Source: Escherichia coli
GTDB lineage: Bacteria; Pseudomonadota; Gammaproteobacteria; Enterobacterales; Enterobacteriaceae
Direction: 5' to 3' (one strand)
Length of the DNA: 64,000 nucleotides
Assembly: GCF_041248615.1 (NCBI RefSeq)
Contig: NZ_CP158426.1
Shown: piece after piece, positions 4,966-39,292 of the stretch
Layout: the number at the start of each line of letters is the position of its first letter
Position numbering within the stretch: position 1 is the first letter of the stretch
The notes under the pieces: model-generated
The model's input: the letters and a program-made list of their open reading frames with translations, nothing else
The model's database searches: none
What the model was told of the DNA's origin: nothing
Made by a program: the position numbers and the translations under genes

Positions 4966-5550
4966 TTATTGTTTGTTTTTTTCGTTCTGGTTGATGACAA
5001 ATTCAATGTAACTTTCGATCTTTGCCTTCTCTGTTTCAGGTAACAATGCGTAGCGCGAGCGGTCATAGTTGATAGTTGCAGGGTCATGCGGATGAATCAG
5101 TAGTTCATATCCGTGACGCCCGAATGCAGATGCAACATTCTCCAGGGTGGAAATGGAAACGCTGACTTCATTGTTTAACAGGCGGCTTATTGTCACCTGG
5201 GCGACGCCGGATGCGCGGTGAAGTTTTCCCTGAGTTGAAAGGTCGCGGCTTTCACTCATCCAGCGTTCCAGGTTGTGAGCTGCCAGCTGACCAATGTCGC
5301 TTGGGCCGACAGGCTGAAAACCTTCCTGAGAAAGCGAGCGATCGATATCAAGCCAGTTACGGGGTTTATTGGCGGCAGCTTCAATTTTTCGCGCAACCTG
5401 GTCGCCGATAACCTTCTTGCCAAGAGCCCAGCGGTTTACCAGATTTGCCTGAGTTCCAAGTTTTTCTGCCATCCGCGTCTGAACACCATTGAATTCACGG
5501 TCGATCAAGTCGTTGAGATTTTGCCTGCGGACGTCCTGGATACTTTTCAT
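4966..5550 (-). CDS. CI-like prophage repressor with two HTH (XRE-type) domains, no S24 peptidase domain
   Basis: 194 aa; two HTH-like segments (res ~10-65 and ~100-150); divergent from Cro-like gene; operator clusters on both sides. Confidence 0.6.
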   Translation of the reverse strand: MKSIQDVRRQNLNDLIDREFNGVQTRMAEKLGTQANLVNRWALGKKVIGDQVARKIEAAANKPRNWLDIDRSLSQEGFQPVGPSDIGQLAAHNLERWMSESRDLSTQGKLHRASGVAQVTISRLLNNEVSVSISTLENVASAFGRHGYELLIHPHDPATINYDRSRYALLPETEKAKIESYIEFVINQNEKNKQ

Positions 5551-5605: not shown

Positions 5606-5668
5606 TTACCCAACAGGTAAATGCACCTCATAGGTAACTATCCTTGATTTTTGTTACCTTATGGGTGA
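5606..5668. promoter_or_regulatory. OR-like tripartite operator: TTACCCAACAGGTAA (5606-5620), GCACCTCATAGGTAA (5623-5637), TTACCTTATGGGTGA (5654-5668)
   Basis: Three 15-bp palindromic sites in the 154-bp gap between divergent repressor and Cro-like genes. Confidence 0.65.
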
Positions 5669-14653: not shown

Positions 14654-14766
14654 AATCTCACCTTAAAAAAATGCCCGGCGAACCTGGCGAACTGGAAGCA
14701 ATGAGTTATGCCTTCCGTGGCTGTACGGGTTTACAGCATGAAGTCATCGCAATGGCGTCCTGCTGT

Positions 14767-14852: not shown

Positions 14853-14929
14853 TGGCGTGGCATGCAGGATTCGAACCTGCGACCAACCGCTTAGAAGGCG
14901 GTTGCTCTGTCCGACTGAGCTAATGCCAC
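14853..14929 (-). tRNA. tRNA-Arg (anticodon UCU), phage-encoded
   Basis: 77 nt; reverse complement GTGGCATTAGCTCAGTCGGACAGAGCAACCGCCTTCTAAGCGGTTGGTCGCAGGTTCGAATCCTGCATGCCACGCCA; 7-bp acceptor stem, T-loop GGTTCGAATCC, anticodon loop CTTCTAA, encoded CCA; close to E. coli argU in layout. Confidence 0.85.
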
Positions 14930-19249: not shown

Positions 19250-19300
19250 CGCCTGTTATTAACCTGTGGGTCGTAACAGACCCACTAATGGAGAAAGAAG

Positions 19301-31530: not shown

Positions 31531-31827
31531 ATGCAAGCTATAGGATTCATTGTTTATATCGTCGTTGGTCTTTTTCAGTTGGCAGCAATTATGGCTGGGC
31601 TTGAATCATGGTGGGGATTGCACTGGATAATTGCAGCCCCCATCGCTTTCATCGTGAGCTATATTCCATTTGTTGGAGCGATTGTTGGTATGGTTGGCGC
31701 TGTGGATGTATGGCGGTGGGAGTGGTGGCAGGCTGGCCTTCTATTCTTTGGTGGGATAATCTTTGCTATTGTCTGCGGTGGAATGTCATCATTTTTCGAA
31801 TGGCTATCATTCAGAAAAGAGACGTGA
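31531..31827 (+). CDS. Small integral membrane protein (3 predicted TM helices)
   Basis: 98 aa, highly hydrophobic; stop TGA lies inside GTGACATGTCAC. Confidence 0.5.
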   Translation: MQAIGFIVYIVVGLFQLAAIMAGLESWWGLHWIIAAPIAFIVSYIPFVGAIVGMVGAVDVWRWEWWQAGLLFFGGIIFAIVCGGMSSFFEWLSFRKET

Positions 31828-31835
31828 CATGTCAC
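31824..31835. repeat. 12-bp palindrome GTGACATGTCAC (copy 3 of 3)
   Basis: Exact; overlaps stop codon of membrane protein gene; terminator hairpin starts at next base. Confidence 0.9.
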
Positions 31836-31860
31836 AGGCCGCTTTCGCGGCCTTGTTTTT
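31836..31860 (+). terminator. Rho-independent terminator
   Basis: Stem AGGCCGC/GCGGCCT, loop TTTC, followed by TGTTTTT. Confidence 0.7.
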
Positions 31861-32020
31861 AACGAATGCCACCGCCGCCCGGGCGGGAATCCGCAGAACG
31901 CCCACCGCAGCGGGAGCCGTCAGCGGCAGTATCGCTGTCGTGCTGACAACGGCCGGCAAAGGCCTGAGTTGAAGCTACCAGAGACAACAAAACGAACAGT
32001 GCAGCAAATGCTTTTTTCAT
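31859..32020 (-). CDS. Possible small secreted protein (signal peptide), start at internal Met
   Basis: MKKAFAALFVLLSLVASTQAFA signal-like N-terminus; weak RBS. Confidence 0.3.
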   Translation of the reverse strand: MKKAFAALFVLLSLVASTQAFAGRCQHDSDTAADGSRCGGRSADSRPGGGGIR

Positions 32021-32094
32021 TGTGAAAAATTTCCATCTATAAGCCACCTCAATGTGGCGTCAATGAGTGTAGCACTGACTTTTGTTTCGTCCAC

Positions 32095-32117
32095 AAAAAA
32101 GCCCGCAGCGCGGGCTT
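32095..32117 (-). terminator. Rho-independent terminator of AT-rich moron gene
   Basis: Stem GCCCGC/GCGGGC with A6 on plus strand; overlaps stop codon. Confidence 0.65.
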
Positions 32118-32655
32118 ACCAAAACTTGTACCACGGGGATTTATCCTTCAATGGACAATCCTTCCATCGTGTGGCCAACCATTCATATTCTTTAAAATAT
32201 GTGTTTATGTTTTCTTTTTCTCTAATGGCTTGTATAAGAGGTAGCGCAATCTGATAGTTATTTACAACGGAGCTGTAAAATACTTCCTTAATCATGGTCT
32301 CATCATAAGTTTTCCGCTTCACGCTCACAGCCATGCGTTCGTAGAAACCTAGACAGTAAATTATTTCTCTCTTCTCTGTCTTTTCTTCATCCGTAAGATC
32401 AGCCTGCCCATTGCTTGGATACATATAAGAGCGGAATGATTTGTTCGATTCGTGAATGCGGCGCATAGTAGATAGGCCTTTCTTATAATCTACATCAAAC
32501 CTGCTTTCACCAAGGAATACTGAAGTGTGTACTTTTCTCGCTGTATTTACATTATAAATAATAGTAGCGATAGCTATGAACAAGCCAAGCGAAACCGCGA
32601 CTGCACTTACGATTTGAGCCACAGCCATGGCAAATTGCATTTCTTCACTTAACAC
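32116..32655 (-). CDS. AT-rich moron: membrane-anchored protein (N-terminal TM helix plus ~140-aa cytoplasmic domain); candidate superinfection-exclusion / abortive-infection factor
   Basis: 179 aa; GC visibly lower than flanking phage DNA; own GTG start with GGAGA SD, own terminator; lies in a position analogous to P22 sieA (between ejection genes and ant). Confidence 0.55.
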   Translation of the reverse strand: MLSEEMQFAMAVAQIVSAVAVSLGLFIAIATIIYNVNTARKVHTSVFLGESRFDVDYKKGLSTMRRIHESNKSFRSYMYPSNGQADLTDEEKTEKREIIYCLGFYERMAVSVKRKTYDETMIKEVFYSSVVNNYQIALPLIQAIREKENINTYFKEYEWLATRWKDCPLKDKSPWYKFW

Positions 32656-32784: not shown

Positions 32785-32799
32785 TCACCCGTGAGGTAA
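32785..32799. promoter_or_regulatory. Operator-like palindrome TCACCCGTGAGGTAA
   Basis: TTACC-N5-GGTAA variant in gap between moron and ant genes. Confidence 0.4.
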
Positions 32800-32865: not shown

Positions 32866-33576
32866 TCAGAAGAACCCTGCCTTGTCGTTGATGTATTCCG
32901 CGTGAGTCTGGATATCACGCAGGCATTTGCTCACACCGACGATGTAGCAAAACATGGTGGTCAGCTCCGCCGCCGCGCCCGATACGTCGTGCCCGTCGTC
33001 CTGTAACTGGTTCAGCAGATTCATCAGCAGTGAGTTCTCCGTCAGGCCGAGAACACCAGACGGAGAATGAATCAGACTGCGGTAGCCGGGCTTCAGTGGG
33101 GCGCTGTAGGTTTTGTTCTCTATCTTCATTGCCTGCATCACTGCTGATGCTGTGGCGTTGGCTACCTGGTCGGCAACCATCTTTATGCGTTCTTCCTGCG
33201 GGAGCGAGTTTTTAATGTAACTTCCGGTGCGGCGGATCTGAGGAAGAACCTCACCTGTAACCCATTTACGAAAGCGGTAGGGGATAGTGCCTGGTGTCAC
33301 CGCATCGCGGCAGCGGAGGATCAGTGTGTAGAGGCCTGACTCGGAGATGATGTTGATCTCTTTTACTCGGCTGTCAAAAATCGCACGATGTTCATGCCCT
33401 ATGTTGAACATAGACCTTTCATCATCATCCAGTTTTTCAAGTGATTGGGTGACGTTTTGGATACGCAGCGCACTACAAACGTCTTGGGCTACAAACCATG
33501 GTTGGCCATCGATAATGATGGAACGGATAGGGTTAACAGATTCAAATTTGAAGATGGCAGTTTGAGCATTAGCCAT
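32866..33576 (-). CDS. Antirepressor (Bro-N domain plus C-terminal Ant-type domain)
   Basis: N-terminus FKFESVNPIRSIIIDGQPWFVAQDVCSAL...ISESGLYTLILR...VLPQIRRTGSY is a Bro-N signature; ATG 33576 has GGAG SD (track GTG start 33591 rejected). Confidence 0.7.
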   Translation of the reverse strand: MANAQTAIFKFESVNPIRSIIIDGQPWFVAQDVCSALRIQNVTQSLEKLDDDERSMFNIGHEHRAIFDSRVKEINIISESGLYTLILRCRDAVTPGTIPYRFRKWVTGEVLPQIRRTGSYIKNSLPQEERIKMVADQVANATASAVMQAMKIENKTYSAPLKPGYRSLIHSPSGVLGLTENSLLMNLLNQLQDDGHDVSGAAAELTTMFCYIVGVSKCLRDIQTHAEYINDKAGFF

Positions 33577-33594
33577 GGTGGTTATCTCCACTTA

Positions 33595-33608
33595 GTGATT
33601 TTAATCAC
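33595..33608. promoter_or_regulatory. Near-perfect 14-bp palindrome GTGATTTTAATCAC overlapping ant ribosome-binding region
   Basis: Read in sequence; 6/7 half-site symmetry; directly upstream of ant SD. Confidence 0.4.
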
Positions 33609-33731
33609 CACCGCAACGCCAATTACTGGTGGTGAACTGGACAAGGTTGGCGTACCGGCCTAAGTGGTACCGGCGTCCTTTCGGACCCCTGCCCAGCCCA
33701 CCATAATTCGGATATAGCTGTGCTTAACGCA

Positions 33732-33755
33732 TAAAAAAACCACGTCTGGCGTGGT
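33732..33755 (-). terminator. Rho-independent terminator downstream of small antirepressor-domain gene
   Basis: Stem ACCACG/CGTGGT with A7 run on plus strand. Confidence 0.6.
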
Positions 33756-33845
33756 ATGCGCCACTTAGTAACTCGGGACGCCAATCCCGGCACTGGATTT
33801 TGCCAGTGCCAGATTACTATGGCACAAGAGGAGTGCGATGTAAAT

Positions 33846-33860
33846 TTACCGCAAAGGTAA
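33846..33860. promoter_or_regulatory. Operator-like palindrome TTACCGCAAAGGTAA
   Basis: Perfect half-sites, 32 bp beyond the 3' end of gene 33892..34149. Confidence 0.45.
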
Positions 33861-33891
33861 ATATAAGCACTCCAGTTGGTAATTGCAAACC

Positions 33892-34149
33892 TTATCTGGT
33901 TTGTTTTCGTAATTGTTCGGCACAATAGTCGAGATGTGTTTGCAGATCCCGCATAGACATCTGTGAGCTGGTGACGTAGTTAATCAGTGCAGTCAGTTCG
34001 GCAAGTGGGCCATCGACATTAAATCCATCCTTATCGAGATCCCGGAGTAATTTCATCAAGTGCGATCCCTCCACCAGTGACCTGACGCCTCCCGGCGTGT
34101 GAATCCTTTCGGTAAATCCGTCTTCCAGTGGATAGTGATACTGCTGCAT
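33892..34149 (-). CDS. Small stand-alone antirepressor-domain protein (85 aa), LexA-box controlled
   Basis: ATG 34149 with SD GGAGAAG; sequence aligns with C-terminal ~65 aa of the Bro-N antirepressor (IH-P-GV...LM-LL..L..DG..V.G..AELT...YV...RD-QTH..Y); LexA box 22 bp upstream. Confidence 0.5.
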   Translation of the reverse strand: MQQYHYPLEDGFTERIHTPGGVRSLVEGSHLMKLLRDLDKDGFNVDGPLAELTALINYVTSSQMSMRDLQTHLDYCAEQLRKQTR

Positions 34150-34168
34150 CTTATCTTCTCCATGCAAT

Positions 34169-34188
34169 AACTGTATATTTATACAGTA
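34169..34188. promoter_or_regulatory. LexA (SOS) box AACTGTATATTTATACAGTA
   Basis: CTGT-N8-ACAG with AT-rich spacer, near consensus TACTGTATATATATACAGTA; immediately upstream of small antirepressor gene. Confidence 0.7.
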
Positions 34189-34225: not shown

Positions 34226-34240
34226 TCACCTGAAAGGTAA
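34226..34240. promoter_or_regulatory. Operator-like palindrome TCACCTGAAAGGTAA in divergent region upstream of tailspike; followed by ATATGTGGTT-N5-GGTAAT (34271-34291)
   Basis: TTACC-N5-GGTAA variant; shares ATATCTATTCGTA 13-mer with site at 5981. Confidence 0.45.
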
Positions 34241-39141: not shown

Positions 39142-39292
39142 CATGGCATTTTTCATGGTACTGATTTCCGGTGACGGTATATAAAACGGTACTAGAAAAA
39201 TGAAGTTTTGGAAAAATGTTATCACTCAATTTGTTATGATTGTCGTAAATAATTGAGTGGGAATGATTTTGATCCCTGCACTATGAATGAAC

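Follow-up and report, generated by a model that had tools for sequence, protein, structure and literature searches.

The lytic switch of Salmonella phage SPC32H is the subject of Kim and Ryu (2013, J Virol 87:11775) and Kim et al. (2016, PNAS 113:E2480). The LexA box reportedly overlaps the promoter of the antirepressor gene ant, and an Ant tetramer is reported to bind two dimers of the repressor Rep, thereby breaking up the DNA-binding Rep tetramer. PDB entry 5D50 is the SPC32H Ant-Rep complex (chain E, Ant; chain A, Rep), and 5D4Z is Rep. One paper describes how LexA self-cleavage leads to the production of an antirepressor, which then inhibits the repressor through direct protein contacts (PMC7380047), and two other texts also summarize the SPC32H mechanism (PMC9638917; bioRxiv 10.1101/2025.11.27.690993). 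LexA-repressed small antirepressors that bind and inactivate a noncleavable repressor are also described as Tum of phage 186, GfoA and GftA of the Gifsy phages, and AntC of N15 (PMC3121763). In Gifsy-1, IsrK provided in trans raises the translation of anrP 139-fold and is complementary to a downstream processed RNA (PMC4825925). Here, we describe a locus of an Escherichia coli prophage that is very probably an SOS-induction switch orthologous to that of SPC32H, composed of a small Ant held by LexA, a Rep that is not cleaved, and a second antirepressor gated by RNA.

RESULTS

Prophage setting

The window (the whole stretch of E. coli DNA that was analyzed, 64 kb long) carries a prophage from position ~1 to 39,268, integrated at the guaA 3' terminus. 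The att core of the phiV10/epsilon15 type, ATTGAGTGGGAATGATT, whose sequence was taken from PMC9782041, is present at 39252-39268. The prophage is phiV10/epsilon15-like (Uetakevirus), and its nearest phages are HEMP4, phiv142-3, vB_EcoP_ZX5, TL-2011b, and phiV10, all belonging to the genus Uetakevirus. The window shares with SPC32H and epsilon15 the order large virion gene, small membrane gene, ant (minus strand), and tailspike gene (plus strand). Among 5,426 complete E. coli genomes, part of the locus is matched in 534 (~10%) and at least 80% of the locus in 217 (~4%).

A LexA box upstream of a small antirepressor gene

33892-34149, minus strand: small ant, 85 aa, orthologue of SPC32H Ant (PDB 5D50_E, PHROG 450)
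34171-34186, no strand assigned: LexA (SOS) box CTGTATATTTATACAG, predicted operator of the small ant promoter

The preliminary description of this DNA, made from its letters alone, had proposed that a LexA box lies ahead of an 85-aa minus-strand open reading frame (ORF) encoding a stand-alone antirepressor domain. The ORF is confirmed: its ATG lies at 34149-34147 and its stop at 33892, a GGAG Shine-Dalgarno (SD) sequence is found at 34158-34161, 8 nt 5' of the ATG, and RefSeq has the identical coding sequence. The encoded protein matches a single PDB sequence, chain E of 5D50 ("Anti-repressor protein"; E value, 1.4e-46), shares 87% identity with the product of the gene annotated as ant in SPC32H, and falls in PHROG 450 (E value, 7e-48), whereas no family was obtained in Pfam or NCBIfam. 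The label of this protein is "hypothetical protein" in the annotation and "unknown function" in PHROGs. PADLOC gave no match for the small Ant, the Bro-N antirepressor described below, or the neighboring small genes.

A tblastn search with the small Ant at an E value of ≤1e-5 matched only 35 Uetakevirus-like records, with no match in phage 186 or N15, both of which are present in the collection; Rep and the small Ant are found together in the same ~35 phage records. Membership in the Tum or AntC family was rejected on this result and on the absence of any link in Pfam and NCBIfam. Judged from sequence, the true family of the small protein is the SPC32H Ant family. Thus, the Gifsy/186-Tum-style circuit put forward in the preliminary description stands in its functional logic and fails by sequence, since nothing was retrieved in 186 or N15.

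The box itself is located exactly as first reported, and with its flanks (AACTGTATATTTATACAGTA) it agrees with the 20-mer LexA consensus (TACTGTATATATATACAGTA) at 18 of 20 positions. It is the sole site of this grade in the 64 kb, and none was obtained in shuffled sequences; with this fit to the consensus, a chance palindrome was rejected. The loose pattern CTGT-N8-ACAG, with three occurrences observed in the window versus 0.72 expected, is not significant by itself, and its two other matches, at 14721 and 19264, have GC-rich spacers. The box ends 21 nt before the ATG of the small ant. No -35/-10 pair was found for the ant promoter by a consensus promoter scan, and none could be resolved by eye.

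When the regions upstream of ant from the window, phiV10, SPC32H, SPC32N, and epsilon15 are aligned, the LexA box occupies identical columns, and variants of the box are present at the same position in phiV10, epsilon15, Tyrion, a metagenomic relative, and a phage of Klebsiella. Between SPC32H and SPC32N there is one C-to-A change, carried by SPC32N in the ACAG half-site of the box. Kim and Ryu (2013) reportedly found that this change renders ant constitutive. Altogether, the orthology with SPC32H Ant and the orthologous position of the box support the proposed LexA control of a stand-alone protein that probably acts as an antirepressor.

Repressor and operator-like palindromes

4966-5550, minus strand: Rep, the prophage repressor and presumed Ant target, 194 aa (5D50_A, 5D4Z)
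5606-5620 and 5654-5668, no strand assigned: rep-cro intergenic palindromes TTACC-N5-GGTAA, putative Rep operators
34226-34240, no strand assigned: TTACC-N5-GGTAA-type palindrome TCACCTGAAAGGTAA, repressor-operator-like, in the interval separating the ant promoter from the tailspike gene
33846-33860, no strand assigned: perfect TTACC-N5-GGTAA palindrome, operator-like, abutting the -35 of the isrK promoter

Rep matches the "Repressor" sequences 5D50_A and 5D4Z over its full length (E value, 4e-42) and is 42% identical to SPC32H Rep, with the presumed recognition helix (NLVNRW) conserved between the two. Pfam finds a helix-turn-helix (HTH) domain at residues 104 to 148 and a weak one at 21 to 67 but no Peptidase_S24, and the translation holds no Ala-Gly or Cys-Gly dipeptide. 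The claim of a CI-like repressor that does not cleave itself is thus borne out for the product of 4966-5550 as far as its predicted domains and residues go. These features argue against classical induction by RecA-stimulated autocleavage of Rep, in which the LexA box and the small ORF would be incidental; in addition, a solved structure shows a Rep homologue bound to Ant (5D50), and phages of different genera keep the box at the orthologous position. No evidence supporting autocleavage was found in the sequence analysis, and we give this explanation almost no credence.

The palindrome TTACC-N5-GGTAA occurs 16 times in the window versus 1.09 expected, and 13 of the 16 sites are located in intergenic regions of the prophage, including the rep-cro interval. 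The epsilon15 record annotates this motif as "repressor" binding sites. A pattern with another spacing, TACC-N7-GGTA, showed no enrichment, the correct spacer being N5. The site at 34226-34240 lies ~40 bp upstream of the LexA box; its position is kept in all the relatives that were aligned, and its epsilon15 counterpart is among the sites annotated as "repressor" binding sites.

A Bro-N protein with an Ant-like C-terminal domain

32866-33576, minus strand: large antirepressor, 236 aa, with a Bro-N domain (aa 17-112) and an Ant-like C-domain (aa ~153-234, nt 32875-33120)

A resemblance between the small ORF and the C-terminal domain of the adjacent Bro-N protein had been noticed by eye. BLASTP bears it out with 43% identity over 74 aa (E value, 3e-16), and both sequences belong to PHROG 450, which residues 153 to 234 of the Bro-N protein match with an E value of 6.5e-36. 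Residues 155 to 231 also match 5D50_E (E value, 2.2e-13), and 21 alignment columns show no variation when nine stand-alone Ants are compared with the C-domain. In Pfam, the Bro-N domain (PF02498; aa 17 to 112; E value, 8e-19) is the only hit, and NCBIfam gave no match for this protein. In the AlphaFold model, the C-domain reaches pLDDT values of 81 to 98; the N-terminal half is below 50, and Foldseek with the full-length model returned no meaningful PDB match.

Across 1.84 billion representatives, an exhaustive profile search retrieved only 60 clusters, mostly of ~86-aa proteins with few fusions; the fused forms came solely from this search, a word-indexed homologue search having returned only the ~86-aa stand-alone forms. 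In the fusions, the Ant-like domain follows an N-terminal Bro-N, AntA, Rha, or ORF6N domain. One AntA fusion (P0122), with a C-domain nearly identical to that of the Bro-N protein, occupies the corresponding locus of a different Uetakevirus prophage, and one Rha fusion is also at the ant locus, in inverted orientation. In the phage collection, the Ant-like C-domain is restricted to phages in which the small Ant and a Rep homologue are present as well. The C-domain therefore moves together with the type of Rep, the N-domain being exchangeable, and a role of the C-domain as a predicted repressor-binding module fits this co-occurrence.

The identities to SPC32H, 87% for Ant versus 42% for Rep, make cognate Ant-Rep recognition an assumption. 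It is possible that Ant recognizes conserved features of Rep; it may also be broad-spectrum, by analogy with the cross talk of the Gifsy phages (PMC3121763), or mosaic recombination may have reassorted ant and rep. This mismatch leaves room for another arrangement, in which the E. coli-type Rep would have its matched partner in the diverged C-domain of the Bro-N protein. The highly conserved small Ant would then not be the main or cognate inducer; it would have come along with the structural and tailspike module and would act broadly or in cross talk. Beyond the mismatch itself, such an arrangement agrees with the Rep and Ant identities not being proportional across clades (Klebsiella clade: Rep 45%, Ant 60 to 64%; Tyrion: Rep 78%, Ant 86%) and with work on ZX5, the Rep of which is 100% identical to that of the prophage: over-expression of its ORF4, with a C-domain 98.8% identical to that of the Bro-N protein, promoted lysis, bringing lysogens from 10^9 to 10^6 (~1,000-fold) and cutting repressor transcription by 75% (PMC9782041). 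However, in PAS61 and YDC107_2 an identical Rep is accompanied by the small Ant alone, the Bro-N gene of phiV10 is split inside the C-domain, the LexA box at the small ant is kept in all clades, and the Salmonella relatives function with the small Ant alone. We consider a Bro-N protein replacing the small Ant as the cognate partner of Rep to be improbable and retain the LexA-controlled small Ant as the probable inducer. The ZX5 over-expression result equally supports the second tier of the switch and the repressor-binding role predicted for the C-domain. The ZX5 study names neither LexA nor SPC32H (PMC9782041). In the ZX5 record, the small Ant ORF is labeled only "hypothetical protein."

An IsrK/C4 RNA pair ahead of the Bro-N gene

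33816-33844, minus strand: promoter-like site TTTACA-17-(TG)CATAGT of the isrK/C4 operon (promoter scan)
33733-33809, minus strand: IsrK-like RNA (Rfam RF01394; 67.2 bits versus a gathering score of 50)
33778-33784, minus strand: decoy target b1 UUGGCGU, within isrK
33761-33768, minus strand: decoy target a1 CUAAGUGG, within isrK
33739-33755, minus strand: intrinsic terminator ending isrK (terminator scan)
33625-33708, minus strand: C4-type antisense RNA (Rfam RF01695; 66 bits versus a gathering score of 45)
33660-33667, minus strand: loop a' CCACUUAG of C4 hairpin 2
33647-33653, minus strand: single-stranded b' ACGCCAA, within C4
33588-33622, minus strand: leader of the Bro-N ant gene, holding the C4 targets b2 and a2
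33616-33622, minus strand: target b2 UUGGCGU, in the Bro-N leader
33588-33595, minus strand: target a2 CUAAGUGG, overlapping the SD GGAG of the Bro-N gene

The proposal that a full-length antirepressor sharing the Ant domain is regulated separately also found support, the Bro-N gene lying behind an IsrK-like RNA and a C4-type RNA with a promoter-like site of their own. The -10 of this site precedes the isrK 5' end given by Rfam by ~7 nt, and its ATAGT block is conserved among relatives. The c4-a1b1 target element RF03163 overlaps isrK with a score near threshold (43.5 bits), and the minimum free energy (MFE) fold of the C4-type RNA yields the C4 architecture (z = -5.8). Both RNAs are unannotated.

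The C4 loops have exact complements of 8 nt (a) and 7 nt (b) at both the upstream and the downstream target. The 8-mer is present three times in the 64 kb, each time within the RNA module, and a shared 8-mer was reproduced in 0 of 5,000 shuffles. Moreover, a'/a1/a2 and b'/b1/b2 covary across nine phage loci, with three b specificities and at least six a specificities: the a pairing is CCUUUUAG with CUAAAAGG in phiV10, CCUUUGUAG with CUACAAAGG in Tyrion and L013 (an inverted version of the module), and CCGAUAAC with GUUAUCGG in sal3, and each of the b' forms ACGCCAA, AGACCAA, and GUGCAAA has matching b1 and b2 among the nine loci. The ATG of the Bro-N ant gene follows 48 nt past C4 with no ORF between them, hence no icd gene, and the position of orf45 holds only a 14-codon ORF (ATGGTGGGC...TAG), which overlaps C4. 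The whole IsrK/C4/Bro-N::Ant-like module is absent from SPC32H and epsilon15, and an isrK and C4 RNA pair also precedes unrelated antirepressor-like genes in Stx and other lambdoid phages.

The palindrome at 33846-33860, next to the isrK -35, recurs in all Uetakevirus versions of the module, among them that of L013, which is inverted, and that of L012, which has AntA; the lambdoid versions lack an equivalent. No canonical terminator was found in the stretch from the ant stop codon (33892) to isrK, and a long inverted repeat spans 33825-33867. SOS induction could therefore feed the second tier. As an extension that would not exclude the switch described above, read-through from the LexA-controlled promoter into isrK, release of Rep at the isrK promoter, or both may raise the decoy and titrate C4, with the large Ant acting as a positive-feedback amplifier. 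That IsrK activates anrP of Gifsy-1 in trans (PMC4825925) agrees with such a relay, as do the missing canonical terminator and the conserved palindrome. The palindrome is, however, only operator-like, and binding of Rep to it, whether repressing or activating, is putative; the inverted repeat could stop or stabilize the ant mRNA. Furthermore, L013 has the whole block of RNAs and large Ant in the opposite orientation with respect to the small ant, so read-through is not a general design. We regard the relay as a tentative extension.

DISCUSSION

Our study points to an E. coli prophage whose induction would follow the SPC32H scheme. The mechanism outlined in the preliminary description is right and was already known, since both Ant and Rep are orthologous to those of SPC32H, a phage of the same genus. 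The sequences directly show the homologies, the orthologous position of the box, the families of the two RNAs, and their covarying pairing. We propose the following model, in which the binding of LexA to the box and of Ant to Rep, the direction in which the RNAs act, and any coupling of the tiers are modeled on the work on SPC32H, P1, and Gifsy-1. In a lysogen, host LexA bound at 34171-34186 would silence the small ant, while Rep would keep the lytic promoters off. Upon DNA damage, RecA-stimulated cleavage of LexA would free the ant promoter, and the Ant thus produced would bind Rep, which, having no S24 domain, would leave its operators uncut, resulting in expression of the lytic genes. In the second tier, the promoter at 33844-33816 would drive the IsrK-like RNA, the C4-type RNA, and the 236-aa Bro-N protein. 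C4, through a' and b', would pair with the Bro-N leader and its SD, blocking translation, and the IsrK-like RNA, with the same two target sequences, would act as a decoy relieving the C4 block.

The core mechanism adds nothing new, being the SPC32H switch, found here in an E. coli prophage. Its practical value lies in a locus that is common in E. coli yet poorly annotated. Neither the small Ant nor LexA was noticed in the published work on ZX5, a near-identical phage (PMC9782041). Moreover, the small Ant is the stand-alone form of a C-terminal module carried by Bro-N, AntA, Rha, and ORF6N antirepressors. The structure 5D50 thus gives a handle on how large antirepressors may bind repressors, and the comparison suggests that the Ant-like C-domain sets repressor specificity.

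A further, rather doubtful, idea is that phiV10-type Uetakeviruses run a two-stage relay in which the Rep-binding domain is used twice, once free under LexA control and once fused to an exchangeable N-domain (Bro-N, AntA, Rha, or ORF6N) behind the IsrK/C4 gate, the promoter of which bears the Rep-operator-like palindrome. If such a relay exists, the large Ant would be unlocked when the small Ant releases Rep or when transcription reads through from the small ant promoter, and it would serve for feedback amplification or as a weapon in anti-immunity and cross talk. SPC32H Ant would then represent, in its minimal form, an effector module that is widespread among the large antirepressors of phages.

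Several known systems share parts of this layout. With 186 Tum, N15 AntC, and Gifsy GfoA and GftA, the logic is the same and there is no detectable sequence similarity, the tblastn search having covered 186 and N15; the small Ant has no DinI-like part, and these proteins are functional analogues rather than members of its family. As in P22 immI, where Ant is a second, separately controlled antirepressor, the Bro-N gene lies in a podovirus between virion genes and the tailspike gene; P22, however, uses the Mnt and Arc proteins and the sar RNA, and its C2 repressor is itself RecA-cleavable (PMC7380047).

The second tier recalls immI of P1/P7, the CI RNA of P4, and immA of N15, all of which have an RNA of the C4 family with two loops that pair with upstream a1b1 and downstream a2b2. 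As in the P1 type, a2b2 is placed at the ribosome-binding site of a gene that precedes or encodes an antirepressor. N15 likewise combines a LexA-controlled antirepressor with the immA operon (PMC4488713). Unlike P1 and N15, the prophage has no icd, its ant gene comes directly after C4 and encodes a Bro-N::Ant-like protein instead of P1 Ant, and its isrK promoter bears the Uetakevirus operator-like palindrome. The isrK-orf45/STnc1160-anrP region of Gifsy-1 is similar in having IsrK with a terminator, then a downstream processed C4-like RNA, and then an antirepressor-like gene. It differs in that the prophage has only 14 codons in place of orf45, the C-domain of the antirepressor is another one, and the module adjoins the tailspike gene, whereas that of Gifsy-1 lies in the antQ region. 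Since Gifsy-1 needs orf45 for translational coupling, the details of IsrK action may differ in the prophage.

The closest likeness is to SPC32H, which shares the genus Uetakevirus, the gene order, an Ant 87% identical, a Rep homologous over its full length, and a LexA box in the same alignment columns; the prophage differs in a Rep only 42% identical and in the IsrK/C4/Bro-N::Ant-like module that SPC32H lacks. Hence, the core switch is already known from SPC32H and the prophage is a further example of it, to which the two-tier layout adds a modest, unreported elaboration assembled from known parts, namely, a paralogous Ant domain, an IsrK/C4 gate, and an operator-like site.

Probable repressor operators and conservation of the antirepressor

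The palindrome TTACC-N5-GGTAA was strongly enriched in the window, with 16 matches against 1.09 expected, and the 13 sites listed below all lie in intergenic regions of the prophage.

TTACC-N5-GGTAA sites (start positions; span 4832-34240)
4832, 4894, 5606, 5654, 5991
7937, 7999, 12106, 12124, 15252
32785, 33846, 34226

Copies flank both antirepressor promoters, and further copies stand ahead of the late genes. Because the epsilon15 record marks the same motif as 'repressor' sites, we propose that these palindromes are probably the operator set of the prophage repressor Rep (and of Cro).

Rep is also the presumed target of the small Ant, the LexA-boxed 85-aa antirepressor, and the two proteins are unequally conserved relative to their SPC32H counterparts, with 87% identity for the small Ant (33892-34149) and only 42% for Rep (4966-5550); the ratio of the two identities differs again in other clades. 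This asymmetry suggests either a broad specificity of Ant or a mosaic reassortment of ant and rep.

The structure of the small Ant family has been solved, yet neither Pfam nor NCBIfam holds a model for it. The family is labeled 'unknown function' in PHROG 450, and the protein is named 'hypothetical protein' both in RefSeq (WP_001188254.1) and in the record of phage ZX5. Of the two antirepressors, the ZX5 paper dealt with the Bro-N protein alone, and it mentioned neither SPC32H nor LexA (PMC9782041).

Directly 3' of the small ant stop codon lies a long inverted repeat, GGAGTGC...GCACTCC (33825-33867, minus strand), which encompasses the -35 box of isrK together with the adjoining operator-like palindrome (33846-33860), and whose phiV10 counterpart is a perfect 18-bp stem. 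Since it lacks a U-tract, it may serve as a 3' stabilizer or weak terminator of the ant mRNA. Two further CTGT-N8-ACAG matches, at 14721-14736 and 19264-19279, have GC-rich spacers and are probably due to chance. A phage-borne tRNA-Arg gene (14856-14929, minus strand) lies between the terminase and portal genes.

RNA regulators and the large antirepressor

The IsrK-like and C4-type RNAs (33625-33809, minus strand) exceed the Rfam gathering thresholds, and both are absent from the RefSeq annotation. Across nine related loci, the a' and b' loops of C4 covary with both target sets, so that three b specificities and no fewer than six for a can be told apart. Such joint change of loops and targets implies that phages that are similar in other respects would differ in their RNA 'immunity' type.

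In phiV10 (L001 3012-3691), the counterpart of the Bro-N gene (32866-33576) is divided into ORFs of 194 and 29 aa, recovered as two pieces by tblastn. The split interrupts the Ant-like C-domain, so that the type phage probably lacks a working large Ant. In other prophages, this C-domain is joined to AntA, Rha, or ORF6N N-domains.

Fusions of the Ant-like C-domain
L012 4001-4651, AntA type, Uetakevirus prophage locus
L013 4001-4714, Rha type, relative locus
P0122, P0131, P0171, and P0175, fusion proteins

In the two loci examined, L012 and L013, the fusion gene is likewise found between the virion gene and the tailspike gene and is preceded by isrK and C4; in L013, the module has the opposite orientation with respect to small ant.

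Moron-like cluster

A moron-like cluster (31531-32655) lies between a virion gene and the Bro-N gene, preceded by an operator-like site (32785-32799).

Members of the moron-like cluster
Plus strand, 98-aa membrane protein
Minus strand, 53-aa ORF, secreted or lipoprotein-like
32116-32655, minus strand, DUF4760 protein

PADLOC returned no match for any member. The cluster distinguishes this prophage from SPC32H and epsilon15, which are both devoid of it.
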